Shown here: positions 3,117-28,618 of the stretch, piece by piece | How the letters are laid out: every line of letters begins with the position of its first letter | How positions within the stretch are numbered: the first letter of the stretch is position 1 | Source of the DNA: Reclinomonas americana ATCC 50394 | Lineage: Eukaryota | DNA length: 28,618 bases | Assembly: GCA_048213135.1 (NCBI GenBank) | Contig: PS015022.1 | Span: 62,001 to 90,618 of the forward strand | Direction of reading: 5' to 3' | The notes under the pieces: model-generated | Database searches by the model: none | What the model saw: the letters and a program-made list of their open reading frames with translations, nothing else | Told to the model about the DNA's origin: nothing | Program-made: the position numbers and the translations under genes

Positions 3117-6100
3117 ATGTCGACAGCCGCCGCCGCCGCCGCTGCCGCCGCTGCTGCTGGCTCGTCGCCTGCCTTTTGTGTCGTTCTCAGAGTTGCGTAC
3201 ACCACACACCTCTCTCTCTGCACACACACACACAGACACGCAATCACATGTGTATTGAGGTGTGCGCGTGCCATGGCACCACCAGCAGCACCGTTTCACC
3301 CTCTCTCTCTCTTTCTCTCTGGGACTCACACGCACCTTGTTGCGCAACAGGCCAAGGGCAAAACCCGCGGTGCTGTGGCCGTCTACCCTCCATATGACGT
3401 CACGGTGGAGAGACCCGGAGAGGAAGAGCCACTGGCGTTCCGATTTGCACGAGCTCTGCCTCCGCGAACACCACAGGTCGACTCTCCCTCTCACTCTCGC
3501 ACACACACACTCGCCACTCGTTTCCATATCTCACTGCTCGCGACACAGGATGCACTCTTTGACACGGCGGTGTGTGATTTGGTGGACGAGGCTCTCCACG
3601 GGTTTGATGTGACTGTGCTTGTCTATGGAGCAGCCAAGGTGTGTGTCTGTGTGTCTGCCTGGCGTTCCCTGCGCACTCCCTCATTGTGTGCATGCAGTCG
3701 GGCAAGTCGTTTACGGTGTTTGGCAATCTGTACGATGCCGACGACGCCGGCATTGCACCGCGCATTGTCACGCACTTGTTTAGCGTGTTGGAGGCGAGTT
3801 GGGAGATCTACGCACAGTTGTCAGTGGTGCTCTTGTGTATTGACTATAGCATGCGCTGTGTGTAGGACAAGTATGGGTCGGTGCGCCGCTCAGTCAGCGC
3901 ACCGCCACCGTACGAGGTGACGGCGTCGCTGTTGTCGATTCGCGACGAGTCTCTGGAGGACTTGTTCTTGGCGAGTGTGCCGACAGATGTGTTGCCGACG
4001 GTGGCCACCGATGCAGCGAGTGGAGCACGCACGTTGAGTCGATTGCTGTCATCGACTGATCGACAGTTGTTGTCATTGACTCACAAGTTCTGTCACAGCC
4101 GTCCTCGCAGCGCTTCTGGTGGTGGTCTGCGCGTGCGAGGCAGTGTCTCGCAGGGCTTTTATGTGGACAATCTGACGGAACGACCTGCTATCAACGCACA
4201 AGCCGCTGTGCAGTTGCGTCAGATCGCTCTCATCCCACTGCGTGTCCTCCGTCTCACTCGTCGACAGAGTGCTTGCCGAGGCGCTGCTGCGCAGTCGTGA
4301 CGGCCACCTAGTGTACACTGTGTCGGTGACACAGCGTGCGCTGGAGGCCGCCAAGAAGCCGCTCTTGTCGCGCATTCGATTGGTGGATGTGACGGGCGAT
4401 TGTCACTCGAAGGACAACAAGGATGCGTACGCTGTGACACGCGTGCTCGCCGCACTCTCGCAGCCGGGTGGAGTCCCGGTGTCGCTGGCCGCTGTTCCGT
4501 TCCGCGAGTCCAAGCTCACTTGCGTCCTCCACCAGTCGTTTGGTGGCAAGTGCAAGACGGTTTGCGCCGCCCTGTCGTCCACGTTGCGTGTGTGCCGTGC
4601 ACGTGCTCACAGACTTGGGTGACTGGCAGCGATTGATCGCCTGTGTGGACACCGAGTCGGCACAGGCCGCCGAGTCACTGCTAACGGTGCAGGTGGCCGA
4701 TCGTGCGCAGTGGATTCAGAACAAACCCGCCGTGATGTACCTGGAAGATGTGGTGGCCAGCAGCAGTGGATCGTCGTCGGCTGGACCCGAGTCGCACGCT
4801 CTGGTGGCGGAGCTGGCAGAGAAGCTGCGTGCGGAGCTCGAGTCAGAAAAGGCACGACTCGTGGAGGAGAACAAGCAGTTGCAGAGTCGCGTTATGCAGC
4901 TGGAGGAGGCAGCGTGGATGACACCCGACGCACCCGACACCTCCAACATGGAACGAGAGATTGCACAGCTGCGAGAGCAACTCGCACAGTCGGAGCAGGT
5001 GTGTAGTGGTGTCGACGCGCTTCCTTTTTGATTCCAAGAGTGCACGTCTCACGCCGTCATGTCGTCGTCGTCGTCGTGCACAGGCTCGACTTGCGTCGGA
5101 GCGTGCGCTGAAGCACGAGACGACCAATCAAGCCGTGCTGGTGGCCGCCGAGTCCGACAAGGTGATGGCGGTGACGCATTCGCTGAAAGAGGCAGAGACA
5201 CGTGCAGAGCAGGCCGCAGCCGAGACAGCCGCGTTGCGACGCCAGTTGGACACGCAGGCGGCTGACCGCACTCGCATGGATGGCCAGAAGAGGGAGCAGT
5301 TGCAGGTCGAGAGCGATCTGGCTGAGGCTCGTCAGAGCATTGTGAAACTGCAGCAGGAGAATGGTGCGTGCATCTGTGTGCGCCCCAAGCATGCCCTGCG
5401 TGCCAATGCCCTGACACCATTTGTGTACTTGTAGCACGCATCGAAACCGAGCTGGCCACGGTCAAGTTCAAGGCCATGCGTTCCGAGTCTGCGCTGGCCG
5501 AGGCGGCTGCACAGACACGCTCGCTGGAGAGTGAGAACGAGAAGCTGAAGAAGCTGGCAGAGCAACTGAAGGCGCGCGTGGATGAGTCGGAACGGAATGC
5601 GGAGGAGGCATTCGCCGCTGCGATGCGTTTGCCCGGGCTGGAGGCGGATCTGGCCGCGGAGCGCGCCGCTGTGCAAGACCTCAAGGCACAGGTGCATTCT
5701 GAGCAGGAGCTGCGAAAGGCGGCCGAGGTGGAGACGCAGGTTGGTGTGATCCCCCATTGCGGAATCGTCAGCTCTTTCGCCCCCTTCTCTCTGCTCAACG
5801 CACCCCTGTCGCACCGCAGAAACTGACCTCGGCCTCTGACCACAATCGACCGCTGCTCGATCAACTCAACGCGGACATCGCACGTGAGCGGGCGTCGGTG
5901 AAGCAGTTGACCACCGAGTTGCAGACGGAGAGGAATGCTCTCGAGGAGGCCTGGGCGCAGCTGTACGCTGCCGAGGCTGAAGTCAAGACGCTGCGTGATC
6001 AGGTGCAGGAGCTGGTCGACGCCAAGGTGGAGCTGGCCAACGAGAAGCAGCGCTACGCTGAGCTGCATCGCGCTCTGGATGAGGAACGAGCAGCGCACAA

Positions 6101-8547
6101 GGGCACCACCTCGCAGACCACTGCACGCAGTCAGCAGCTGTTTGACGACAACCAACGAGTTGCGTTGCTGCTGTCTCTTTTCTTTGATTGAGCGCACATG
6201 CACTCACGCCCTTCCTGTCCTTTTCGCTTGCGTCGCACAGTTGCAACACCAGGTGGAGGCGGCGGAGAGGACAGTCACGGAGGCACAGCGAGAGGCCGAG
6301 ATGCACCGCACGTCGGCGACGCAGCTCGAGCGGGAACTTGGAGTCGTGCGTCGCTCGGCTGAGCAAGCGAGTGGCGAGCTGAAGGCGGCACAGGCACACA
6401 TTGCGCAGTTGGAGGCGGAGGTCAGCAGCGCTGATGCACGCACCAAGGATCTGGAAACGCGCTTGTCGTCGCATGCCAGCAGCAAGGACGAGGTTGCTGG
6501 CGAGCTGGCTCGTGTGCAGGCGGAACTTGCCGAGGCACGGCGCGTCAACAAGGAGACCTCCGCCAAGGCCGGCAGCGCCGATGTGCTCAGCAGGCAAATC
6601 ACGGAGCTGGAGGCGCAAGTCGCGTCGCTGCACAGTCGTTTGGCCACGCAGGAGAGCGACTTGATTAGCTCGCGTACCGAGTTGTCGGAGGCGCAGCGCA
6701 AGGCTCGTGCCGCTGACGTGCAGGCTGCGCGAGTGCCTGAACTGGAGGCACAAATCACTGCACTGCAGGCTCGCGTACCGCCTCCGTCGCCCGGTGGTGG
6801 TCAGTCGGAGAGCTCTCGTGTGGCCGCACTCAAGGCTGAGCTGGAGGACGAGATCACGGAGCGACAGAATGTGGAGCAGGAGCTGGCGGCGGCGCGCGAC
6901 GAGATTGACGAGTTGCGAGAGCAGCTGGCCAGCGAGAGTGCCACACGACTGCCGCCGCGCCAGAGCACAGGCGACAGTGGTGATGGCGAGGCTGAAGAGC
7001 TTCGCATGCGAGTGGAGGAGCTGCAGGCCGACGTGGGTGAATTGCAGCGCATCAATGAGGAGCAGCAGGCACTCATGCAGCAGCTGACGGAGGAGCGCGA
7101 TCAGCTGGGCGAGGATCTCGAGTTCTTCAAGGACAAGAACGAGGAGCTCAAGTTGCAAACATCGACGGCCGAGAAGCGCAGCAAGCGACTGGAGGAGCAC
7201 TTGTCGTCGGCACTCAACCGTGTCACCGACTTGGAGAGTGCTGCACTGGCGCACGAGGCGCAGAAGAAGCAGGTGGCGTCGCTGGCGGAGGAGTTGCAGA
7301 CGGCACAGACGCGTATTCGACGTTGCGCGCATGTGTGTGTCGATGCGTGTTGCGCTGCGTATCTCACTGTTGTTCTTGTGGGGTGCAGATTTGGAGAGCA
7401 CAGCACGCGATCTGGACCAGGCGAACGCGGAAATGGCAGAGGAGCTCGGCAAGCTGCGAGTGGAGAAGAGACGGCATGCCGACCAGGTGCACCACGACGG
7501 CTCTGGCGCAGCGACTGCCGCCGGTGCCAACAAGGACGAGGTGGTGACACTGCGTCGCGATCTGGCGGTGCTGCGTGAGAGCCACACGGCAGTGCACGAA
7601 AAGTACGCGGCGCTCAAGAGCCAGTCGCAACAGCTGCAGGAGCGACACGACGCCCTGCAGGCGCAGTGTGCAGAGCTGCAGAGCAAGCTGGACGAGGCGA
7701 TGGCACGAGTGGCCGAGTTGGAGCAGCAAGTGGGTGACATGTCGCAAGGACGCACGGTGACCGAGGCGGCGTCGGAGGCCGAGAAGCGCACGCTGGCGCA
7801 ACGATGTGCCGACTTTGACCGGTTAGTGTCGGTGCAGCGCGAGACCATTCAGCGTCTGGAGGAGAACCACAAGAAGCGCGAGGAGGAGCTCAAGGCCTCT
7901 GTCGACGACTTGCGCCGCGACTGCGACTTTGCCAAGGAGGAGGCGCGAGTGGCCAACATGCGGTGCGAGGAACGAAGTTGCGGCGACAGCAGCAGATGGG
8001 CGAGATTGATGTTGGCGACTTGTGTGTGTGTGTGTGCTGACACTCTCTGTGTGCAGTTGTGCAGCTGCGCGACGTGACGGACAGATACCAGTTGATGCAG
8101 GAGCAAATTGCCGCCATGAAGTCCGCCTTTATCGAACAGGGCCAGGTGCTCCGTGCGCAGAAGCGGCACTTGCAGTCGCACATTAGCAAGCAGGAGCGCG
8201 TGAACCAGCTGCTCGAGGGCATGGGCAACAGCACCGTGAACCGCGTGCTGAGTCCGGAACGTGAGCGACCGCTGTCGGCACGGCCGAGCAGCACGCATCA
8301 CATGCTGGTCAATTCGGGAAGGCACTCGCCAAAACCAGCGCCGTCCTCCTCCTCGTCTTCATCGACCACAGCCAGCGGTGCCGTCACTGCCCGATCGCGC
8401 TCACGCTCACCGAACCCGTCCAGCTCGGCAGCCACCTCGGCCCGCTCCTCGGCGTCGTCGGCATCCGTCGCCTCATCCACAAGGCGAACGATCGGTGCCG
8501 GCAGCTCGACCGTGACACGAACCGTCACGTCGGCCCGCCGCAAGTAG
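3117..8547 (+). CDS. Divergent kinesin-like protein: N-terminal motor-like domain, long coiled coil, Ser/Arg-rich tail; ~14 exons
   Basis: Spliced motifs GFDVTVLVYGAAK|SGKSFTVFG (P-loop), GIAPR, GFYVDNLTE, IRLVDVTG, VPFRESKLTCVLHQSFGGKCKT|RLIACV and ESLLTVQVADRAQWIQNKP. These are followed by E/Q/A/L-rich heptad sequence over ~4790-8220 and TAG at 8545-8547. Confidence 0.88.
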
Positions 8548-8753
8548 GAATGCTGGAGGGGGGAATGAGAAACAACACCCTGAATGAATCGCGCATCACA
8601 ATGTTTTTTTGTGTTTGTGTTTTTAATTTGCAGCAGCGTGACGGGTTGATGGCGGCTGGGTGATGAGGGGGCAGAGCGTGTGGAACGGAAGGTCCCCTCA
8701 CGACACACTTTTCAAATCGTCCCATGGGAGAGTGAAAGGCAAGGCAACGAGGA

Positions 8754-9392
8754 TTACTCCAGGTCGTCAATCGTCACTTCCACCTCGACGCCCGGCTCGA
8801 TCGAGATCGACGTCTGTTCCACGCAAGCAAATAAGCCACAAGCGAGACACGTCTCCGCGAGCACGACAAACAACACGCAACAATCTTGCGGACAACGTCG
8901 GGGACCGAGTACAGGCGGATGACGCGCTTGTGGATCTTCATCTCGAAGCGATCCCACGAGTTGGTACCGTTACCGCAAGGGCTCTTACGGGTGGTGATCG
9001 ACAGGTTCTTGGTGGGAATGCGGATCGGGCTGCATGAACACACACGAATGAGCATCATGACACCATGAACGGCTGAGATCTCTCTTTGTCAACTCACCCC
9101 TTGACCTGCAGCTGCTGGTCCTTGGCGCGGGTGATGAGCTCCGAGCACACTGCACATGGGAAAACAGTCAGTCTTCTCTCTCTCTCTCTGGTTTCCTGCC
9201 ATGCCCTCAACACGCACCCTTCTCCAGCGCGCGCACAATGCGCGACGTCAGAGTGATGGTGATCTTGTGGACCTGCAGAAGCACACAATCATCAGTGACT
9301 GACTGGAGAGTGTGGGGAGACAAGAGTGAGAGAGGAGACAGCACCTTCGCGGCCGGGATATCCTCAGTGACCTTCTTCGGGGGAACCGCCAT
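8754..9392 (-). CDS. RPS20: 40S ribosomal protein S20 (uS10); 5 coding exons
   Basis: MAVPPKK...|[104 protein letters not shown], which matches the eukaryotic RPS20 pattern closely. Confidence 0.97.
8814..8881 (-). other. RPS20 intron with +1-shifted donor (ATT|GTTGCGT...CAG|ACG)
   Basis: Junction fixed by conserved RPS20 sequence [13 protein letters not shown]. Confidence 0.88.
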
Positions 9393-9801
9393 GGTTGTGA
9401 TGCGTCAGGGTGCTGCGTGTAGAAGAGTGAGTGAGCGTCACATGCACATCGCCGACTTGCTTTCCGCGCCCGTGTGTCTGACATCTTCCACGTGCTCTCT
9501 TTGTGCTCAGTCACTCGCTGGCCAGCCACCACACAACACGCAAGTGTACACAACACAGAGAGAGAGTGCGTGTGTGGAAGTGTGCGACATGCGCATGTGC
9601 CACTCGCGTGAACACCAACAGCCGAGTGCCCTCTCATTTCTCGCTCGCACACAAGACACACAATGCGCGCGCCATACACATGCTTGCCGAGCACATGATA
9701 GAGATGCGGCCCCCGCTCTCACCTGCTTGCGTAGTGACAATAGGAGCCAATAAGCGACGAGCGAGCAGCAATGTCCACATTGATCAATCACTTTTATCAC
9801 C

Positions 9802-11804
9802 ATGTTGTCGACTGTTGCGTGCTCACCAGTGACGCGTGTGTACATGTGCATGCATTCATGCGCGTGTTATGTGTGCGGAAGAATTGAGCGCGAGCGAGTG
9901 AGTGCTGACATGTCGCGCTTGTGTTTCTCTCAGGTGTTGCGGCGCATGGTCGGCGCCCCCTCCATGACTGGTGCGCCTTGCTTGCTCTCGCACTCTGTGT
10001 GCATGTCTGTCTGCTCACTTCTGTGTGTGTGCGCGCAGGTTTCATCAGGTTTTTTGCTTCTCTCTTGTGTGCGCACTGTAACCCATGCATGACACTGTCT
10101 CTCTCTGCGTGCGTGATAGTCGCCCGGCTCCGTTTGTGATGGCACAGCGTGTCGCGTTGACTCGCGTCTTCTCCACGGGAAAGGGTGCGTCTCCCAAGCC
10201 ACACTCTGGTCTCTTTCAGCGCTCATGTCGATGATGTATGCAGAGCTCAACATTGTCGTGCCTTCCATGGGAGACTCGATCTCCGAGGGCACTATTGTCG
10301 AGTGGCTGCGCAGTTGCGTGAGTCATGTACGCACAGAGACAGGCACAGGAGGACACAACACACACACACACACACACACATACTCGTACACGCACGCACC
10401 CTTGCAAACACACACACACGCCACACCTATGCACATGGAGCGGTCGTTCTGAGTGAGCATGCAGAGCCCGGCGATTCCATTGCCGAGGACGAGGTGCTGG
10501 TGCAGCTCGAGACTGACAAGGTGGCGCGAGCTCGTCCTCTTTCTCCATCGTTCGTGCCGTCTCTCACTGCGTGTGCGTGTGAGTGAAGATCACGGTGGAC
10601 GTGCGTGCGCCTCAGGGTGGCACCGTTGTCAAGACGCTGGCGGCCAAGAATGATACCGTGTCGGTCGGACAGGTGATTGCGGTGTTGCAGACGGGTGCGG
10701 CTGGTGCTGGTGCGTCGATTCGTGTGTGTACAGTGTGTGGTTGAGAGAGAGAGAGAGAGAGAGAGATTGACACCGTACACAGCCAAGCCTGCTCCTGCTG
10801 CTGCTGCCGCCGCCCCGGCTGCCAAGCCTGCTGCTCCCGCTGCTGCTGCGGCGGCTCCGGCGGCTGCCCCTGCGAAGCCTGCTGCCCCGAAGCCGGCTCC
10901 GGCGCCGACTGCTGCTGCGCCGGCTGCCAAGTCGACTGACGAGCTGCAGGAGCGTCGTGTGCCCATGTCCAAGATGCGCAAGCGCATTGCCGAGCGCCTG
11001 AAGGAGGCTCAGAACACTTATGCAATGCTGACGACGTTTAACGAGGTGCGTGTGTCTCTCTCAACACACACACTCTCTCTCGTTTCCGTTTTCCCCACTC
11101 ACTCTCCGCACGAAAAAAAGGTGGACATGAGTGCGGTGATGCAGCTGCGCAACGAATTCAAGGACGTGTTTGAGAAGCGCCACGGTGTGAAGCTCGGCTT
11201 CATGTCGGCCTTTGTGTACGCCGCGTGCATTGCGCTGCAGCGAGTGCCGGCGGTGAATGCGGTGATTGACGGCGACGATGTGGTGTACCGCGACTACTGC
11301 GACGTCAGCGTGGCAGTGGCGACTCCAAAGGGCCTCGTGGTCCCCGTGATCCGCAACGCCGAGAAGCTGTCGTTTGCCGGCATCGAGAAGGAGATTGGCA
11401 GACTGGGCGAGCTCGCTCGCGTCGGCGGTCTGACGATTCAGGATGTTGCGTGCACGCGCGTGTGTGTGTGTGCGCCCTGCATTCCCTCCCTCCTCCTCCT
11501 CATCTCCTTCATCGACTAAATGCAGATGCAAGGCGGCACCTTCTCCATCTCCAACGGTGGCGTGTTCGGCTCTCTGATGGGCACACCCATCATCAACCCG
11601 CCACAGTCGGCGATTCTCGGCATGCACGCCATCAAGGACCGCGCAGTGGTGGACGAGAAGACCAAGCAGGTGGTGGCCCGACCCATGATGTACATTGCGC
11701 TCACCTACGACCACCGATTGGTCGACGGCCGCGAAGCCGTCACCTTCCTCAAGACCATCAAGGAGATCGTGGAGGACCCGCGCCGCATCGTGCTCGACAT
11801 CTAA
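9802..11804 (+). CDS. DLST: Dihydrolipoamide succinyltransferase (E2 of 2-oxoglutarate dehydrogenase), mitochondrial precursor; ~10 exons
   Basis: Arg-rich presequence (MLST|VLRRMVG...RVFST), lipoyl domain [42 protein letters not shown] and an Ala/Pro/Lys linker. The catalytic domain reads [23 protein letters not shown]...[32 protein letters not shown]...[21 protein letters not shown] at 11802-11804. Confidence 0.96.
10313..10464 (+). other. DLST intron with +1-shifted donor (A|GTTGCGT...CAG|AG), containing (CA)n
   Basis: A phase-1 junction restores EWLRKPGD of the lipoyl domain; the nearby GTGAGT at 10318 gives the wrong frame. Confidence 0.85.
11445..11525 (+). other. DLST intron with +1-shifted donor (GAT|GTTGCGT...CAG|ATG)
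   Basis: Restores [15 protein letters not shown]; in-frame TAA inside the intron. Confidence 0.88.
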
Positions 11805-11919
11805 ACCAGGCATTCTTCGGAACGTCGCTTCACGTCGCGATGTCGAGAAATGAAAAGGTCCTGCTCGCGGCAGTCCGTTTTCATGTCGGAAATCCACTTC
11901 TCTCACTCTCTGTCGCGCG

Positions 11920-14900
11920 ATGTCGTTTGCGCGGATCGAAGAGCAGTTTCGGAAGGTAGATGCCGACGAGCAGCGAGTGCGCGAGTACTTTTCTCCAGTA
12001 ACCTCCAATCAGAAAGTCGTCAATCGCTCCCGACATCGGTTTGCTTCACTGTCACATGCTGTTTTTTCCCTCTGGTTTATGCTCATCTCTGACCTGTTGA
12101 CAGCTACATCAAGTTCCTCAATGATGAAGAGAGGTGAGCAGTCGTCTGTGTGCGTGTGTGTGAGCGTTTGTGTCACTGACAATCAGCAACAGTCGCGCAG
12201 CTCGAGCGATCGAGTCGTCAGCGCAGAGTGATGAGGAGGCAGTCAAGCTGCAACGTGTGCGAGCGTTGCGTCTCTCTCTCACACTCTCTCTCGCTCACAG
12301 ACTGTGTGTGCGTGTGCGCATTCGTCTCACACGGTATTGCGCACGACATTACAGGCTGAAGATTGCCGGCGCCAAGGCACGCCCAGCACTCACAGTGCGT
12401 AAGGCCACATTGGGTATACACAGATGCGCACTCCCCTGACTCTTTGTCTCCATCCGACACAGGTACTGGCAGCGAGACTGAAGCAATTCACTGAGAATAT
12501 CGAGGAGCATGTGGAGACTGAGTCTCGTGACACGCTGCTGGAACGCCTCGGTCGCCTCGAGTCGATCATCAAGCTGACGAGTTTGAACAAGGCTGCTGTG
12601 TTGCGTGATGCATGTGGTCCGTCGGGCGCTTGCTCGGTTGTGTGCCGCTGACATTCTTCGTGGCACGCTGGGCAGCGATTCGGTGGCGAGTGCTGTTGGA
12701 GCGGGCAAGCCGGCCGCGGCACCGGCGATGCATGGAGGTCCGCCACAGCCGCCTGCGGGGATGGCCGGTCAGGGGGATGGTGCAGGCTCTGAGGAGACGT
12801 ATCCGCTGCCGGAGTTGTTTGATGAGCGGCGACGAGTTGCGCCGCAGTGATCAGTTAATTGTGTGATCGATTGTTCAGGTGATTGAATGGCGACCGCTTG
12901 TGCAGGTGGGTGCTGCACGACAGACAGCCGCAGTGCCGACGATGCAGTCGCGAGCGCGACCACCGGCACCGCCCAGCACGCTGTCGGCCGGCTCCACTCG
13001 CTTCGGCATGCAGTTGCCTGCGTCGCCGTCGAGGACACCGGGTTCGTCGGCGGCCACCACACCGCTCGGATCGGCTCGCGATCGTCGGGGAAGCGGCAGT
13101 GGTGGCAGTGCGCATCCTGTGGTGGAACCAGTGACCGACGAGAATCGCGAGGTGGTCGAAGACTTGCTGGTGCTGAATCCGCCTGTCGTTGTCATGTCGG
13201 TCGGCCACCAGCGCATGTCCAGCACCGGCAGCGCTCTTGGTGGCGCCGACGATCGTGCAGTGCCTACCGCAACGACTGGATCGACTCCGACGTCGTCAAC
13301 CACGCCGTCTGCAACCACCACTGCACGACAGCGCTCACGGACAACCATTGCAGCCGCACCGCCTCCAACCCAACAGTCGCTGCTTCTGGTTCGCCAAGGG
13401 AGCCTGCAGCATCGACGACGGTCATCGCTGCACGGCCTGGTGCGTGCCTTCCACCTTGTTGTTGTCCCATGCTTGACTCTTGAACTGACCGCAGTCTGTG
13501 ACAGCGGCCGATGCTGCCGTTGCAGGCCACGCTCGATGTTGGCGACATGCCGACTGACCGCTCCAATCTGAGCAGCCGGTCATCGATGATGGGCATTGAT
13601 GGCTCGCTGTTCAACCTGCAGATCAAGGTCACTCGCTACGCGTCACTCGCTTTGTTGCCGTTGCGTGATGTGTCGAAACGTGATTGGTGTATCCCGTGCT
13701 GAAACCAGACTCTGTGCTGCAGTCAACTGCCCGACAAGTTCGCCTTCATCTCCAACACGGGCGACACGATGCGTGCCCTGTCACTCAGTTTCTCCGGCGA
13801 TATCTCTGCCAGCGGTGGTGCTGCTGCAAGTGGCAGTGGCGGTGGTGGTGGCGGCCAGGGATCGCGTCCACCATCGCGCTCAACCTCGCCACAGCAGCAG
13901 AAGCGCGCACAGAGTGCCGGCCCCGGAGCGCAGCGCCCCGGAACCTCGTCACTCAATCGACCATTGAACAAGTATCACAAGGACTATTACAAGCTGCTGG
14001 TGCGCGACTGTGCACGATGCAATCGCGAGTGGAAGATGATTGACTGACGAGCTGACACTGTCTGGTGTGTGCAATAGCTGCAACTTGAGTCGACCGCGCC
14101 CAACATGGAGAGATGGCTGGCAGATGTAACCATTCGGGACCTCGATGACACAAGAGAGTCTGGGCGTGCCTCGTTCTCTCGACTGAAGGTGCGTGCACGC
14201 GTGCGTGAGGGATGAATATGCAGAAGCAGTGTGTCACTCTGGCTCCCTGCCCGCCACAGATCAACAAGAACAATTGTGTGGTGTTCAAGGAGGCGCACGG
14301 CCCATTCTTGAATCCAGTTGGTTCGTGTGTTGGACGAGTTAGTTTTTTTGCGATTCCACGAGATGTGTTAATGGGGGCGTGTGTTGTGCAGATTTGCTGC
14401 GGTCCGTCAACACGCCGGAGCAACTATTCGGGCACACTCTCAGCATCGAAGTGACGGTCACGTTCCCCAAGCGACTGAACACGATTGAGACGCGCGTGAC
14501 TCTCTCTGGTGTGTTGAGCATGTGCCTTGCTCATGCCACTTTATCACGTTCTGATTTTCATGGAGGCGCAGATGTGGCCGGTGAAGATGTCAGCGAGGCG
14601 CGGTCACCGTCGTTTGCCATGGCCGGTGCGGGCCATCGCATACACAACGACAGTGGCAGTGAGGACGACGAGGCTCTGTTGGCGTTTCCGGCGCACAGTC
14701 GATGGGCGAACGCTATTGTGTCACTGAGGGTGAGTTGGGCGGTGCGAGGAAGAGAATAAGAGTGTTATCATACGCAAGACCCTCACACTTATGCAGGAGT
14801 CGCAGCAGCCGAGAGAGGGAGCAGCGCCGTTGAGCAAGGTAACATGCCCACACGGACATCAAATACAGTACACCATGAATGCTCACCCTTCTGTGCAGGA

Positions 14901-16083: not shown

Positions 16084-16913
16084 TTACTGGCTCACAACTG
16101 CAGATGCAACAAGGATGAGAGCAGTTCGTTGACAACGGCGACAACAGCGACAGCCAACGCAACTCGACAGGTAGATGCCCCACACGAAGGCCACCATGTT
16201 CGAGAACAAGACGCGGAAACGCACCGGCACAAAGCTGCACACACAAGTGAACAACCAAGACTTGAAACTGCATGCAGTGCACGAGCGCACGAACCGGAAG
16301 TTGATGAGCTGCGCCACAGGCCACAGCTTCCACCCGGCAAAGATGGTGGGGATCACTGTGGTGGCCAGCGTGCGCGGGATATCACCCGGTCGCCCATCCG
16401 CCGCCGCCATGAAGCTGAAGAACGCCGAGGTCATAAACAGCGCAAACAAGGTCTGATCGACCGCCAGCTTGATCATCATCTGACGAAAGAAGAGGCAGCA
16501 CGAGTGAGCACAGACATGCAACTAACACTCTCTCTCTCTCTCTCTTACCTTTCCACTGCCTACATAACGCTCGAGTAGCTTGTGCCAGTGATGCACCAGC
16601 ACACCAGCAATGGCTCCCCACGTGCCAAACCTCAGAGTCTTGCCAAAGGCAAACGACCACACACGACCAGCACGCAGTGCAGCACCGCGCTCAAAGCCCA
16701 CTTGCGCAATCACATTGGAGAGCACAGACAGAGTCGCGGATGTGAGAGACTGCACACACGCGAGTGAGTGTGTGTGTGTGAATGAGAGCCAGTGTGTGTG
16801 TGTGTGTCAACTGATACCTTTGTGAGGATGGGCTTGTGCTCCAGAGACTTTTCGTAAAAGCCGAGGATGCGTCGCCACAGTGGCACCGATCGTTCTTCCT
16901 TGCTCAACGCCAT
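16084..16913 (-). CDS. Mpv17/PMP22 family membrane protein; ~5 exons
   Basis: YEKSLEHKPILTK|SLTSATLSVLSNVIAQ, HHWHKLLER, KLAVDQTLFA, GWKLWPVAQLINFR|FVPVRFRVLFSNMVAFVWGIYLS are the family signatures. Confidence 0.93.
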
Positions 16914-17037
16914 TACACAGAAGGGGGAGGAGGAGTTCACTGTCGCAATCGCTCGATGTCCGCTCGATCGGAGAATTTTGGTGACGGACAGGACCACAAG
17001 TGGCAACGTAGAGGAGAGAGAGAGAGGCACGTAGAGA

Positions 17038-19305
17038 TCAGACGCGATCAGCTGCAGCGCCACCACTGGTGAAGTCGGCGGAGGCTGTCGGTGCGTGGCT
17101 GCGCGTGGCCACAGGAGCAGCACTGGCGGCGGTCATTGGGGAGGTGCGAGTGGCGACGGCGACGCCACTGGGTGAGGCTCGTGAGCGTGGAGAGGCGGCT
17201 GCGTTGAGCTGGTTCGTGAGACGTTCGGCTTCGCGCTTGCAGCGATCGCCGAGCTGCGCCTTGAAGCGCTGCTGCTCGCTCTGCCAGAAGCGGTCGTCGC
17301 GGAAAACGTGCGGCTCGCACAGGTAGCGGCGGCGCACGTCGACGAGGCACGGTACGACCATCAGCTTGGCCAGCAGGCGGCTCAGTGACCTGCGATTGTG
17401 AACGTGAGGACAATTCTTGTCGACAATACTGGTGGGTCCGGAGACGGTACGCAACGCCCACAGGTTTCGCCACTCGACGAGCTCGCTGACCTTGTCGTCG
17501 TCCATGTCCAACGACGGCGGCAGCACGGAGCCGTCAAAGAGGCGACCGTCCTCCCACTCAATCTCAGTCCGGGTCTCCGACGCCTGCCACGGATCAAAGA
17601 GCGCCACGAAGAGGTCGCCCTTGATGCCAGCCGCTCCGCGTTGCATGAACCAGTGCGGCGAGGAGACAAACGAGCGCAACACCTGCACGAGCACCTTCTT
17701 GCGTGCCGGAGTGAGTCGGTCGTCCTGATAGTCGTCGGCGTTGCCGCCGGCTTCCTGCGCTCGAGAGGAGAAGCGTGAGAAGGAAATAGGAGGCGAGGGA
17801 ACGAGAAGAGGTGTTCTGACAGCACCAGCATCTGCTCGATGCGGCCGACGAGGGCGTCGCAGGTGCCGGTGATCATGTTGTGCGCGTCGGCCACTGATGG
17901 CGAGTGTGTGAGACTGCAACTTTCCCCAAAAAGAATAAGAGAGTGAAGCAGTGCCACGAAACAAATGCCGTCGATGAGCCGCTTTGCGTTCTTGCGCTCC
18001 GCCGACAGCATCGGGTCCTGCTCGAGATCGCGGTTGGAGCTGGACATTGACCCGCGGCGCAGCTGCGTGCCCTCCAGCGTGGTGAGGTCGTGCAACAGCT
18101 GCGGCACCGTCTGCTTGGCGGGGATGAAGCGCTCGACCACCGCCGCGAAGCCGGCCTTCAGACGCGTCAGCTGGTCCACTTGCGGCGTCCGGGAGAACGT
18201 GCCGTACTCGACCAGCGCACCAGCGTAGCGGCGGATAATGACCTCGCGGTAAAAGTACTGCAGGCAGGGAGGAAAGTAATATCAAACAAACACAAGGGTA
18301 ATGCAGTGCAACAGCAACCGACCTCCATGAACAGAGTGAACTCACTGTGCGAGCAGGAGGCAAACATGAGAGGCTACACGTGGAGGATTAGGGCGTTGCA
18401 ACAGAGACGCACTCGCGCTCCATCTTCTTGTTGCTGTCCAGATCAAACTGCGTCATGATGCTGTTCACATGGACGGCGTCAATGTGGTCCACCAGCGCCT
18501 TGGTGCTGGCCTCGGTGATCGGCAACGGCGCCGCATCGCGCATGTGATCTACGTACGAACTTAAACGAGCAGCTCAGCAGCTCAGCAGCAGCACACACAA
18601 CGCGCACCCGTAAGCCGCTCCCGGAAGTGCTGGATGAACTCGTCCGGCTCAATCGTTCCCTGCGCATGATCGCTGTTAGTGGCCGAGGGTGGAAAAGGCT
18701 GAAGGCAGAAAAAGCGAACACGCGCCGACTTGTCTGTATCAATCTGTGCAAAGAAGTCGTCGAGATCCTGCTGCCAGCCGGGCGTACGGAAGCGCAGCTC
18801 CACAATCGAGACTAGTGTAGCCCACGCAACATAAAAACACAAGCACATGGGATCCGAGGAAAGACCGAAACGCAACTGCACCACTCGACATACGCGCTCG
18901 CCGCATGCTGCAACTGCACATCCAGCAGGTGCCGCTGGAAGAACGGCAGAGGCACGAACGTCGGAACTGTTGTACACCACGTGAGCAAACAGACACGTGC
19001 GTTGCTGTGAGAGAGACGCAACTGTGTCCATCTCTCTTGACCTCCAACAGCTTATAATCCGGCCACGACTCCACGGGCAGTCGCTGCACACGACGCGGAG
19101 CAGCTGCACTCATGGCCACACCCACAGGCGACAGCACTCCACTGCCTCCACCTCCACTGCCACTCTCCTGAGAGTGCGAGGTGCGCCGATGACGAGTGGC
19201 CGAGAGAGGCGCCTCATAGTCGACATACGCCGCGTCCAGTGCCGTCAGAGGCGCAACACCCGCGCTGAATGGCGACTGCCACTCAGACGTGCAACAGTTG
19301 CCCAT
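17038..19305 (-). CDS. EF-hand calcium-binding protein with N-terminal MGNCC dual-acylation motif; ~9 exons
   Basis: Starts MGNCCTSE. Splicing reconstitutes a canonical EF loop FAQIDTDKS|GTIEPDEF and a second, degenerate loop FDLDSNKKMERD|EF. The C-terminal half is unrecognised. TGA at 17040-17038. Confidence 0.75.
18660..18725 (-). other. GC-AG intron (TCG|GCGCGT...CAG|GGA)
   Basis: Only this donor yields the 12-residue EF loop DTDKSGTIEPDE. Confidence 0.75.
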
Positions 19306-23565: not shown

Positions 23566-24360
23566 TCATCTGCCCACCTCGGGCGTCGTCTCGCGCATGA
23601 CCTGCGCCACGCGCGGCACCTGCAGCTGCTTCCGCACAATCTCCATGACCATGATATCGTCGCTCTGGTACACATCGTCGAGGTGCGTGTTGGGGATGCG
23701 CTGCAGCGTGAATCCATGCTCGGAGCGCAACTCGCGGAAAAACGCCATGTCGCCTGCCGACGTGCCACTGCGCAGCTCATACGCCAGATAGATGGTCGCA
23801 TTTGCGTTGCTGCCACACAACGCCAACAGTGTTGTCATTAGTGGACGCCATCCGGCCTCGTCTCCACCGTAGACGCAATCGGAGGCGAGAATAACATCGA
23901 AACCGCTGTCGCCTGCCAGTTGTCTGGCCTGCTCCTCGTCGCCCCACTCCAGCGCCTGCACGCGTGTGTTGCGACACGCATTCGCCTCTGCGTTGTGACG
24001 CAGCAATGGCAGACGCCGTGGGCGATCAGTGAGCACCATCTCCTTGGGTCCAAGTTGAGCTACAGTGCGCGTGTGAGAGCAATGTGTGCATCGACCGGAA
24101 GCAGCCCACTGTGACGCACCGACTGCGATGCCGACCAGTCCGCACCCTGCGCCCAGCTCAATGCACCGCTTCTCGGAGAAGAAGCCGAGCGGGAAGCGCG
24201 TGGTGCCACTGCACTTCTCAAAGAACTTGCTGAGCACCAGTGACGAGTCCCAGCAGGTGTCGCCGACGTCCTCTTCAGCCTCCTCGCCCTCGCATGCAAT
24301 GCCGCCTTGTGCAATCACCAGCTCGTGGCCAAAGAACTCCACGCGACGCTCACTGCTCAT
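23566..24360 (-). CDS. METTL21/Methyltransf_16 family protein methyltransferase; 2 exons
   Basis: VGDTCWDSSLVLSKF, motif I KRCIELGAGCGLVGI, VLTD, VQALEWG, FDVILASDCVY, IYLAYELR; one in-frame GTGCGT...TAG intron. Confidence 0.93.
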   Translation of the reverse strand: MSSERRVEFFGHELVIAQGGIACEGEEAEEDVGDTCWDSSLVLSKFFEKCSGTTRFPLGFFSEKRCIELGAGCGLVGIAVGASQWAASGRCTHCSHTRTVAQLGPKEMVLTDRPRRLPLLRHNAEANACRNTRVQALEWGDEEQARQLAGDSGFDVILASDCVYGGDEAGWRPLMTTLLALCGSNANATIYLAYELRSGTSAGDMAFFRELRSEHGFTLQRIPNTHLDDVYQSDDIMVMEIVRKQLQVPRVAQVMRETTPEVGR

Positions 24361-24539: not shown

Positions 24540-27500
24540 ATGGCCCGCTCAAGTACGTTTTTTGTGCACACTTTGACCGCACACTTTCACACACGCGCGC
24601 GCACATTCCCTCACGCCACAGTGGACGCAGATGTGCAGCGGAGAGTTGTGACAGCAGTGATTGTGCTGTCACTAATGATGATGATGATGATGATGTTGGC
24701 GGCGGCTCCAGGAGTAATGGGACTGCGACATCGAACCTCGCGCAGTCATCATCAGAAACAGCAACAGGAACAGCAGCATGTGTCAATGGACCAAATGGGC
24801 GCTGTGTCAATGGCAGGCGACACTGGTGATGACGGCATGAGTTGTGTTTGCGTCAGCCGAAGCCCAGATAGTCTCCCGCCACGTGGCGATCTCACTTGTT
24901 GTCTTGTCGCGCACGCAGTGGATGATGTGTTTGATGTGATTGTGGAGCAGCGTGAGGGCGATGGAAAGTTTGTGGTGATCATCGATGGTTCGTCTCTCTC
25001 TCTGTCCGCGCGAGTGTGTGTGCCACGTGGATTTGCTGAGGTGTTGTGACGTGGTGCAGGCGAGGAGCTGCAGTTGCCGGAGAGCTTCCAGCCGCAGGTG
25101 GATCCGGAGACGGGCATGATTATGCTGTCGGAGACGGAGATGCAGCAGGTGGAGACGCTGGTGGATACGATGCAGCGGGCGTTGAGAAATCTGGAGCGGG
25201 CGATTGCGGATAATGAGGTGTTGCATGACGGTGGTGGTGATTCGGCGCCGCCACCCACCACCACGAGTGAGCTTCCGGCTGGTCAGCCAGCGGCAGAGGG
25301 AGCGACGGTGCAGGCTGGTGATGAGCCGGGGAAGGAGGGCGAGGGCGAGGAGCCAAAGGAGGAGGAAATCGAGGTGCCGAAGGATCTGTACGGGCAGGCG
25401 GAGGATGCGCGGTCGAATCGCGAGTTTGAAAAGTTGAGTCGCCCTTTGCATGCGTCGGTGTACTTGACTCGGTGGCTGATGATGTGTTGCGGCAGGGCGG
25501 TTGAGCTGTTGCAGCGTGCGGTGGAGACGGAGAACTCGACCGACGCGCAGCTGCGTCTCGGCCTTATGTACGAGGTACGGTCGCATGGCGATGTGCGACA
25601 GGGGTCGATTGCATTCCTCACTTGCGTGATGTGCAGTACGGCGAGGGAGTGCAGCAGAATTGGACGCTGGCGGCCGACCATTTCGCCAAGGCCACCAACA
25701 AGGGCAACCCCAAGGCGATGCACGAACTCGGCTTCTGCTACATCAACGGTCTCGGTGTGCCGCGCAATCTGGGAGTGGTGAGTGCTCTCCTTCGTTGCTC
25801 ATGCGAGTCTTTCTCTCTCTCTCTCTCTCTCTGTCGCTCTCTCGCTCACCGAGCATCTATTGTAGGGCCTGTTGCATTGGCATTTCGCCGCACGAGCAAA
25901 GAACGTGCCGGCATCGCTGGCCCTCGGCCACCGCTACATGTATGGCATCAATGTGGAAAAGTCGTGCGAGAGTGCGGCACCGTACTATCGTGTGGCTGCC
26001 GAGCAATGTTGCGAGCAGAGTGTTTTTCTATGTGCGTGTCGGTGATGCTGACCCGAGGGATCGTGATGTGTGCAGCGGTGTTGCAGCACATGGCTCAGGA
26101 GAGCCACCCGTACGACCTGATTGATCTGATGAACCCGGTGGCCATTCAGGAGAAGGAGCGCGAGTCGGATCTCATTGAGCTGTACGAGTACTCGGCGGCA
26201 AAGGGCGACACCAAGGCACAGGTCTGCTTTTCCGTGCATCTGAACCCCTTCTCATTGTCGAGTTCCGGCTGCCTGACACGCGGCTTCGTCACAGTTGTAC
26301 CTGGGTTACGCCAACCTGCTCGGCTGGAACGGTCTGCCGCAGAACCGGCCCGCAGCCGTGGAGTACTTTGAACAGGCTGCAGCTGGCGGCGATCCTGGAG
26401 GTCACGCCGCTCTCGGCCAGGTGTTTGTGCAGGGCTTGGGCGTGAAGCAGGACAACAAGACTGCGCACGAACATTTCAAGAAGGCCGCCGATGCTGTGCG
26501 TCACGCCATTGTGCTTTCGTATGTGATTGTCTGCCTCAGCTCTGACATGCTTGTATTCGCCACTGCAGGGCCACGCTGGCGCGCAAAATGGACTGGGTAC
26601 GTGACTCGTCGTCGTCGAGGACTGCACGGTGAATGCATGCTCATTGTTCGTTGCTCTGCAGGCTACCTGTACTTGAATGGTCTCGGCGTGCCAAAGGATC
26701 CGGAGCGTGCTCTGCGCTACTTCCGCGCCGCTGCCGAACAGGGCAACCCCGAAGGTCAGTTCAACTGCGGCTTCATGCACCACCACGGACACGGAACGCC
26801 GGTCAACCACGCCATGGCCTTCCAGTACTACTCCAAGGCGGCGGCACAGGGACAGGATCTGGCCACCTTCCAGATGGCGGAAATGTACCTCAACGGACAG
26901 GGAGTCACGCGCAGCTGCTCACAGGCACTCAAGCACTACAAGAAGATGGCGGAGAAAGGTATCGTGTGTACACGCAGTATTGTATGTGTTGTCGAGGGGC
27001 TGTGTGTGTTCACTCGTGATGTGTGCTCTGCCAGGCACTTGGACCGATCTGATTGACGATGCCTATGCGTCGTACATGGACGGTGACTACACCATGGCGC
27101 TGCTGGACTATTTGCACGGCGCCGAGCGCGGGTACGAGGTGGCGCAGAGCAACGTGGCTTTCATGTTGGAGCGCCGTCTGGGAGTCGAGGCCATCTTTGG
27201 TCCCGACCCCATGGCCACGGAGACTGCCGTGGCGGCGCTGGCTGCCGAGCGGAAACAACTGGAGGATGCCAATAAGGCCGCCAAGGACAGTGGCGAGCAA
27301 CAGGCACAGCAGCAGCAGCAGCAGCAGCAGCAGCAAGTGGTCACGCAACAGCAGGCCACGGAGCTCAAATTGGCGCAGCAGGCCGCAGCTGACCGTGAGT
27401 TCGCCATTGACCGCCTCGCGCTGCAGTGGTACTCGCGTGCTGCCATGCAGGGACATGTGAAGGCGAACTTGAAGGTGTGTATATGCCGTTTACTCCCGCA

Positions 27501-28316
27501 GACTCCACGCATCCCTTGTCTGACGTGCAATCTCGTAGGTGGGCGACTTCTTGTACTACGGCAAGGGCCACGAGGTGGACTTGCCGCTGGCCGCCGAGTT
27601 CTACCGACGTGCCAGTGAGCTGAACAGTGACGCGGCCACGTGGAACCTCGGTTTCATGCACCAGTACGGAATTGGCCTGCCCAAGGTGTGTGTGTGGCTG
27701 TAAAGGGAGTGTCCATCAAGCTGCAGCTGCTCACTGCTCTTGTCTACATGCGCAGGACCTGCATCTGGCCAAGCGCTACTACGACCAAGTGGTGGCGGCC
27801 GGTGGCACTGGCGTGGTGCCGGCGTACTTGGCCCTGTGGGGCTTGTGGTTGCAGTCGACTTGGGAGTGGGCGGTGGCACTGTGGGAGAATGGCGACCCTT
27901 CGTTGCTGACGTCGCTCTCGTGGTGGCGCGTACAACAGACGGCACTGTGGTCGACCGTGATTGAGCCGTGGCTGCGGTCGTGGGACAACACAGCACTGGT
28001 TTTCTTCTCGGCGCTTCTCATTATGCTGGTGTTTACGCGCGTGACCGTCGGCGTGCTCTGCTGCCTCAATCCGTTCACGTGGAGACGACGGAAGAACCGC
28101 AGTGCGGAGGGCGACGCATCACAGGCGGCGGCCGACCGCATCCGCCTCGAAGACTTCGAGTTGAACGTGCAGCGGCGCAGACCACCAGCCGCCGACGGCG
28201 TGGAGGTGGTCGACGAGCAAATCGTCGACATGCCCCACGCACCGGCCGCCGATCAGGAAGACGCCGTCCCTCGTGAACGGCGTCCACACCACCACGCCGA
28301 GGGCGATGTAGAATGA
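24540..28316 (+). CDS. SEL1L: SEL1L/Hrd3-like ERAD component (signal peptide, Sel1-like repeats, C-terminal TM); ~14 exons
   Basis: Multiple SLR repeats (AQLRLGLMYE|YGEGV, AMHELGFCYINGLGV, LALGHRYMYGINVEKSCESA, GQFNCGFMHHHGHG). Also the Hrd3-type motifs GAERGYEVAQSNVAFML and DLHLAKRYYD, and a TM segment ALVFFSALLIMLVF. TGA at 28314-28316; start exon inferred. Confidence 0.88.

Positions 28317-28467: not shown

Positions 28468-28519
<52 letters not shown>
28468..28519 (+). repeat. (CT)26 microsatellite
   Basis: Direct reading. Shorter (CA)/(GA)/(GT) runs occur in many introns, e.g. ~10358-10381, 10743-10766, 20553-20579. Confidence 0.95.
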
Positions 28520-28524
<5 letters not shown>

Positions 28525-28618
28525 GTACGACGTACCGACCACGACCGACCGACCGACCGACCGACCGACCGACCGGACCGGACCGGACCGGACCGGACCG
28601 GTACCGGACCGGCCGGTC
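28520..28618. repeat. Degenerate TACG > (GACC)n > (GGACC)n low-complexity end of the window, probably low-quality sequence
   Basis: The repeat unit drifts progressively straight after a long dinucleotide run at the sequence end. Confidence 0.6.

Follow-up and report, generated by a model that had tools for sequence, protein, structure and literature searches.

The window analysed here, a stretch of 28,618 nucleotides of contig PS015022.1 from Reclinomonas americana ATCC 50394, carries a ribosomal protein gene and a 2-oxoacid dehydrogenase E2 gene whose introns use two kinds of 5' splice site. Three named introns in these genes, like others in the window, begin with GTTGCGT, the donor of what we refer to as class 2; the ordinary class-1 donors have G at position +5 (in the donors below a slash marks the cut).

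8754..9392, minus strand: RPS20 (uS10) coding region, 120 amino acids, five exons, PF00338, exon joints seen in the contigs of run X1
8814..8881, minus strand: RPS20 intron 4, 68 nt, phase 0 after an Ile codon, class 2
9802..11804, plus strand: DLST-type 2-oxoacid dehydrogenase E2 gene, 411 amino acids, PF00198, presequence-like N-terminus
9814..9933, plus strand: additional DLST class-2 intron, act/GTTGCGT, phase 0, from the gene model and a loose end in X1
10313..10464, plus strand: DLST class-2 intron, 152 nt, phase 1 inside a Lys codon
11445..11525, plus strand: DLST class-2 intron, 81 nt, phase 0 after an Asp codon
17390..17455, minus strand: class-2 intron of a neighbouring gene, donor GTTGCGT at 17455, joined in X1, not in the gene model

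The RPS20 product is closest to an EST-derived protein of the jakobid Histiona aroides, with 98 of 120 residues identical, which on this single gene points to a probable histionid jakobid; the remaining RPS20 introns (9344-9273, 9217-9150 and 9097-9030) have ordinary G/GTG donors. In our gene model DLST has nine introns, three of class 2 and six that follow an exon-final G; the three 5'-most of the nine come from that model without homology support. DLST probably begins at 9802, in which case the plus-strand interval 9802-10184 contains those three 5' introns as well as a micro-exon of 10 nt (10039-10048), and only about 410 bases separate its start codon from that of RPS20, the two genes lying head to head. 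Neighbours include a kinesin with a long coiled-coil tail (3117-8549), a Methyltransf_16 lysine methyltransferase (23566-24360) and a Sel1-repeat protein (24810-28311), and several neighbouring genes bear class-2 introns. The window contains 18 copies of GTTGCGT where 7.1 would be expected, a count that none of 100 shuffles reached, and 14 of the 18 words are predicted donors. The last part of the window, 28470-28618, consists of (CT)n followed by low-complexity runs of the ACGT, ACCG and GACC type, and looks like a sequencing or assembly artefact.

The original prediction placed introns at 8881-8814 in RPS20 and at 10313-10464 and 11445-11525 in DLST, and held that conserved protein sequence fixes their junctions to the base. 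All three introns are present at these positions and all read GTTGCGT...CAG (att/GTTGCGT in RPS20; gca/GTTGCGT and gat/GTTGCGT in DLST); the peptide TIQD/MQGGTF spans the last of them as had been claimed, and the other peptides are likewise as described. We scored every GT/GC-AG pair within 24 bases of each junction, and versions with both ends slid, on family HMMs built from 102 uS10 and 93 E2 homologues, with the window's own proteins left out. The named junctions rank first of 31 alternatives in RPS20 and first of 77 and 33 in DLST, ahead of the next-best GT/GC-AG pair by 5.4, 6.1 and 6.6 bits respectively. The residue after each junction is family-typical (Thr in 84 of 102 uS10 proteins, Lys in 41 of 93 and Met in 78 of 93 E2 proteins), and the Histiona uS10 protein reads VVRKITSI across the intron-4 point. 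Over non-canonical versions in which both ends slide by one or two bases the lead is only 0.6-2.9 bits, and protein conservation alone thus sets length and frame, whereas the last base needs the GT-AG rule or RNA. The three junctions have the best family-profile score at every site, and the claim that protein sequence by itself fixes them to the base is slightly overstated.

Intron-less contigs from a close relative bear on the same junctions. No run recorded as RNA is listed for 8500-12000, and one public run, X1, contains part of the stretch. These contigs, from one study in public run X1, are 85-99% alike to the window; that they derive from RNA is a guess, and the relative's own introns are unseen. 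RPS20 is joined exactly from 8813 to 8882, with zero ambiguous letters, at the predicted junction. At the first named DLST intron the X1 contig leaves at 10312, shows A rather than G after that base, and resumes with AG and one substituted letter; the piece before the last named intron stops exactly at 11444. A loose end before 9934 resembles 9780-9813, across the additional DLST intron at 9814-9933. In the neighbouring gene the X1 joint falls at 17387-17454, and read with the cut moved by +2 it gives CT..AC. A single 2044-nt X1 contig runs across an Mpv17/PMP22-family gene and its upstream neighbour (16164-18751, minus strand), either through read-through or through an assembly join.

The named introns are best read as ordinary GT-AG spliceosomal introns of an abundant second donor class, W/GTTGCGT, that accounts for about 25% of introns. 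The class counts are estimates from a self-training HMM gene model, run on 451 kb of the 108-Mb assembly with 144 kb held out, which makes visible errors in the window. Stretches that did not look eukaryotic, eleven of 60 (L017-L019 and L041-L048), did not enter the model, nor did L039-L040, which is probably an allele of contig C429. The assembly looks diploid, with locus pairs 89-98% alike, and also contains bacterial-looking contigs; the first 30 kb of the window's own contig (L017-L019, C14:1-30000) differs from the remainder in having 66-68% GC and neither microsatellites nor intron words, as a foreign element or a misjoin would. GTTGCGT is also over-represented across 212.5 kb (114 against 44), and among the donors called by a motif-blind model, with no donor rule beyond GT, no heptamer was more frequent (101 of 1165). 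When G/TT was allowed at equal prior, reading frame picked /GTTGCG 88 times, G/TTGCG seven times and GTTGC/GT four times among 627 introns, and the same three cuts stood at 17:1:1 among 143 held-out introns. A two-class mixture assigns 28% of introns to class 2, with T at +3 in 96%, G at +4 in 88%, C at +5 in 90%, G at +6 in 97% and T at +7 in 79%. By rule, 573 high-confidence introns divide into 146 of class 2, 355 with G at +5 (class 1) and 72 that are neither, and class 2 makes up 30 of 127 held-out introns (53 loci of 87, short or duplicate ones dropped).

The two classes differ sharply on the exon side. Only 11 of 146 class-2 donors follow an exon-final G, compared with 323 of 355 ordinary donors, and in the held-out set the counts are 1 of 30 and 66 of 72. 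Phase-0 introns after residues without a G-ending codon are correspondingly frequent in class 2 (21 of 65 versus 10 of 182), and the exon-final G is avoided even where the codon permits it (6 of 43, with 16 expected). Phase-2 introns are also commoner in class 2 (44 of 146 versus 50 of 355, p=1e-4), and U is present at +7 in 116 of 146 class-2 donors. The contrast in information content, 7.8 against 2.2 bits, is partly circular. At the 3' end no class-specific signal was found, and acceptor profile, CTNAY-type branch words, distance and length do not differ between the classes. Class-2 introns did not cluster within genes (p=0.34), nor were they clearly enriched near AT-AC introns (23 of 75 versus 232 of 1019). 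Set against known intron types, class 2 has the GT-AG ends and, in sequence words, the branch and acceptor of U2-type introns; it departs from the U2-type donor in having no +5G by definition, a -1G in just those 11 cases, and a median predicted duplex with canonical U1 of -1.4 kcal/mol. It departs from U12-type introns in both donor (GTTGCGT rather than RTATCCTT) and branch (CCTTRAC in 0 of 146). What it does resemble is the shifted register of certain human sites, with the consensus displaced by one base and the cut at the first GU. The GCGT of class-1 donors recurs in the class-2 donor, displaced by one base.

The genome holds three U1 loci, one canonical (AUACUUACCUG) and two identical copies (L001 and L002) of a variant with the 5' end AUACGUAACUU; the variant copies look like alleles, with flanks 93-97% alike. 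Positions 3-9 of the variant are complementary to GUUGCGU at all seven bases, through six Watson-Crick pairs and one G-U, and with the named donors it can form 7-9 pairs. The variant keeps the 70K loop, the U1A loop, the Sm site and the terminal stem, folds well (z -2.85), and matches RF00003 over its full length (E 2.7e-14, 64 bits; the canonical copy scores 63.7, both below the 69.5 cut-off). A CCACAA element lies at -61 to -71 in nine of 11 snRNA loci, the variant U1 included; the upstream region of the canonical U1 is masked. Predicted duplex energy is better by more than 1 kcal/mol with the variant in 143 of 146 class-2 donors, with medians of -9.0 for the variant and -1.4 kcal/mol for the canonical U1, while among class-1 donors the canonical U1 wins 212 of 355 and the variant 22. 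For the three named donors the variant gives -10.2, -10.1 and -9.4, and the canonical U1 -1.4, -2.1 and -0.6. The original prediction called these donors shifted; the consensus is indeed moved by one base, although that word overlooks what probably underlies it: a further U1 gene whose 5' arm has been rewritten, and not a one-base slip of the standard U1. It had also proposed that donors of this kind in highly expressed, essential genes, properties assumed from the gene names, are spliced efficiently. The RPS20 and DLST junctions do sit at such donors, and retention of either named DLST intron would, by computation, cut DLST to 110 or 343 of its 411 amino acids. Together with the rigid consensus, the matching variant U1 and the relative's spliced contigs, this truncation suggests that the named donors are strong, constitutive sites, and efficient splicing of the three introns is plausible.

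Overall, we believe that a dedicated U1 paralogue, the variant U1, probably reads class-2 donors, with the cut before the G, a reading that draws on sequence complementarity. The variant U1 snRNP would commit class-2 donors, and its C9, normally the reader of the last exon G, would read the +1 G of the intron. All seven contacts would thus lie inside the intron and leave the exon end free, and a free exon end would explain why class 2 follows A, T or C and is used at codons unable to end in G, such as those at the three named introns (Ile, Asp and the first base of Lys). The 3' end would be read as in ordinary introns, to judge from the shared acceptor, branch words and length. U1 finds the donor and does not alone fix the cut, a job shared by U1, U5, U6 and Prp8, and in the standard register the ACAGA box of U6 pairs with donor positions +5 and +6. 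Canonical U6 in this register mismatches class 2 at +5C and +6G, whereas in a +1 register it pairs with +6 and +7. All three U6 copies are canonical, and a genome search returned no U6 with an altered ACAGAGA box, two extra pattern matches not being U6. The least certain step is the hand-over, in which the single U6 type would probably pair with +6G and +7U, one donor base being looped out and the cut staying at /GU; at the rare human shifted sites the U6 hand-over must likewise keep the cut at /GU. At the same time, U1 pairing alone does not account for the whole donor profile: the perfect complement GTTACGT occurs once among 146 class-2 donors, and at +4 there are 15 T and one A (p=0.002 against class-1 +3). 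The variant also pairs tolerably with G/GTGCGT donors, and the division of labour between the two U1 types may therefore be partial.

Another account would leave the canonical U1 to read class 2 in a +1 shifted register, with the variant U1 silent, redundant or a general reader of GCGT donors in both classes. A shifted register is established in human, in the portion of the source available to us (PMC4856993); here the canonical U1 averages about 6.4 pairs on class 2 in that register, which also counts against the variant-U1 reading, and the variant's G5 fits the +4C of class-1 donors as well (163 of 355). The canonical duplexes predicted for class 2 are nevertheless very weak (the -1.4 kcal/mol median), while A8 and G5 of the variant match +2U and +5C exactly, and a silent gene sits poorly with an intact structure, a promoter element and identical copies within flanks 93-97% alike. 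We consider this account improbable. Far less credible, and already largely refuted, is the idea that the true cut is G/TTGCGT, a UU donor, or that the extra T is an assembly error, in which case no second GT class would exist. G-TTGCGT does align with G-GTGCGT, the protein margins against a +1 slide are small (0.9-2.9 bits), and the motif-blind model chose G/TTGCG in seven of 99 cases; but G/TT with an unchanged acceptor shifts the frame, the X1 contig joins RPS20 unambiguously, and an inserted T would neither remove the exon-final G nor create a matching U1 gene. The GCGT word displaced by one base, for its part, suits a reader shared between the classes, and this counts against the model considered below.

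That model proposes a hybrid spliceosome, in which the variant U1 and ordinary U2 assemble on the intron and the tri-snRNP brings an altered U6atac that pairs with +5C and +6G in the normal register, class 2 deriving in part from GT-AG minor introns. It is compatible with the variant-U1 step and differs from the preferred reading at catalysis. The only U6atac found has ACCGAGAGA in place of the AAGGAGAGA of the Rfam consensus:

L085:1501-1632 (G000:C392:96657-96788) and L086: U6atac with A13C and G14C relative to the Rfam consensus, allele-like copies, 37.8 bits (cut-off 33)

Human suppressor experiments, as described in the part of the report seen, pair U6atac positions 14 and 15 with +6 and +5 (PMC4980772), so that G14C calls for a G at +6, as in class 2, and A16 would form a pair with the +4T of a GTTTCG subclass. 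The helix-I arm of this U6atac can pair with U2, and the altered RNA mismatches the genome's own minor introns. These introns (RTATCCT...CCTTRAC) number 79 genome-wide against 15 in the control and are almost all of AT type, 62 of 79 beginning ATATCCTT and three GTATCCTT (counted by hand, alleles included; for example L096-L114). The excess of phase-2 introns in class 2 points the same way, as does a GT-AG U12-type intron (GTATCCT donor, CCTTGAC branch) at the position of RPS20 intron 4 in another eukaryote (L157:6148-6456). Against this, C13 mismatches +7U, with which the consensus A13 would pair, so that the altered U6atac gains only two pairs; the CCTTRAC branch is absent from all 146 class-2 introns; and U4atac was not found in the genome. 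A canonical second U6atac may be absent from the assembly or lie outside the candidates scored (45 of 3871); none was found, and L137 gave no Rfam match. An excess of AT-AC introns is known elsewhere, from what we saw of a study of Blastocystis (77%; PMC10639083), and the argument from ancestry comes down to one position in one locus. Among eight related loci the RPS20 position holds a U12-type intron in one (L157), a U2-type intron in two (L160 and L162), and no intron or diverged sequence in five; the metagenome contigs searched for RPS20 gave eight distant loci, none jakobid-like. U11 is present, and its G6 mismatches the class-2 +6G; U12 is a weak candidate at 26.5 bits. We regard the hybrid model as unlikely, although it is the alternative we take most seriously. 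Its full form, a third, chimeric spliceosome (U1 paralogue, U2 and G14C U6atac) serving about a quarter of introns in a class seeded by former GT-AG minor introns, the RPS20 intron among them, with the major and AT-AC minor systems still in place next to it, would be slightly less likely again. Two candidates examined in this connection were set aside: a U4atac candidate, found by promoter and complement, had no Sm site, pairing no better than shuffles and no Rfam match, and minor-like introns with RTATCG donors (115 against 57 in the control) lay in many cases on bacterial-looking contigs and were not intron-like.

The variant-U1 reading has precedents for most of its parts. Roca and Krainer reportedly described, in 2009, a small number of atypical human 5' splice sites at which standard U1 pairs in a register shifted by +1. 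In the parts of the sources available to us, U1 at such sites pairs one position downstream (cited in PMC4856993), and, as here, GT is followed by a consensus lying one base into the intron while the cut stays at /GU; unlike the human sites, class 2 comprises about a quarter of introns and is matched by a U1 paralogue with compensatory changes. Entamoeba has the U1 5' arm AACAAAC for GUUUGUU, and Mastigamoeba ACGUAC (bioRxiv 10.1101/2022.06.08.495308). These too, in the text consulted, are arms rewritten for atypical donors, the Mastigamoeba change being the variant's G5, although each species has a single U1 candidate and donors of one type, in the canonical register. In R. americana, by contrast, the genome has both a canonical and a variant U1, and its two donor classes stand in different registers. 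The same preprint mentions, without details, standard and modified U1 in Physarum. The diplonemid S. specki has an alternative U1, both U1s fitting the canonical logo comparably (PMC12621601), and Fritillaria borealis has non-canonical introns and two U1s with identical 5' ends, a dedicated U1 not being the route taken, as its authors note (PMC13326754); they share two U1 genes or unusual donors with R. americana, and in the parts of these reports we saw neither has a donor class matched to a variant. Two major donor classes, AG//GU and //GURAG, are set by U5 versus U6 pairing (PMC11732430, seen in part). Class 2 shows a similar trade-off between exon-side and intron-side information; unlike those classes, it is a discrete group with a U1 of its own and with neither -1G nor +5G. 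Physarum polycephalum has expanded, transformed minor introns (bioRxiv 10.1101/2020.10.12.336362), and 'hybrid' introns with proposed hybrid spliceosomes have been described (PMC11347168). As far as the portions consulted go, the former resemble class 2 in being a large second class with a co-evolved snRNA and a changed phase bias, and the latter share the idea of mixing major and minor snRNAs. Physarum, however, keeps U12-like donors and has changed the branch and U12, whereas class 2 has a donor other than RTATCC, a U2-like branch and a U1 as its matching RNA, and exists alongside a separate set of textbook AT-AC introns, U11 and a U12 candidate. Within the literature covered, which lies mostly outside subscription journals and was seen in part, there was no report of GTTGCGT donors, of jakobid U1 variants, or of a pair of U1 genes each matched to an abundant donor class, Physarum and S. 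specki being nearest.

Two codes for the start of an intron thus seem to operate within one cell. If each of two U1 genes does serve an abundant donor class of its own, this would go beyond the co-evolution of a single U1 with its donors in Entamoeba and Mastigamoeba. The organism also has a very large natural collection of donors with neither -1G nor +5G; a U1 paralogue matches them while U6 is unchanged, and this combination makes the hand-over step directly testable. In practice, annotation with standard gene finders will put about a quarter of this lineage's donors in the wrong place.

Some further observations concern the splicing machinery at large. A genome search for paralogous proteins that might serve two machines returned only two allele-like loci each for PRP8 and U1-70K, and in the one exon compared PRP8 hardly differs from the solved protein; an exon-by-exon search gave no match to U1C and is uninformative. 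The variant U1 pattern had no match among metagenome contigs, a set that may lack near-identical genomes. CCDC84/CENATAC-like matches occur at two places, and matches to PF05971 may be bacterial. There are two clearly different U2 types, scoring 114 and 85 bits (L014:1501-1699 and L015/L016:1501-1717), with the same normal branch-pairing sequence. The CCACAA element precedes the variant U1, both U2 types, U4, U5, U6, U6atac and U11, and is likely to be a promoter element of snRNA genes in this lineage.
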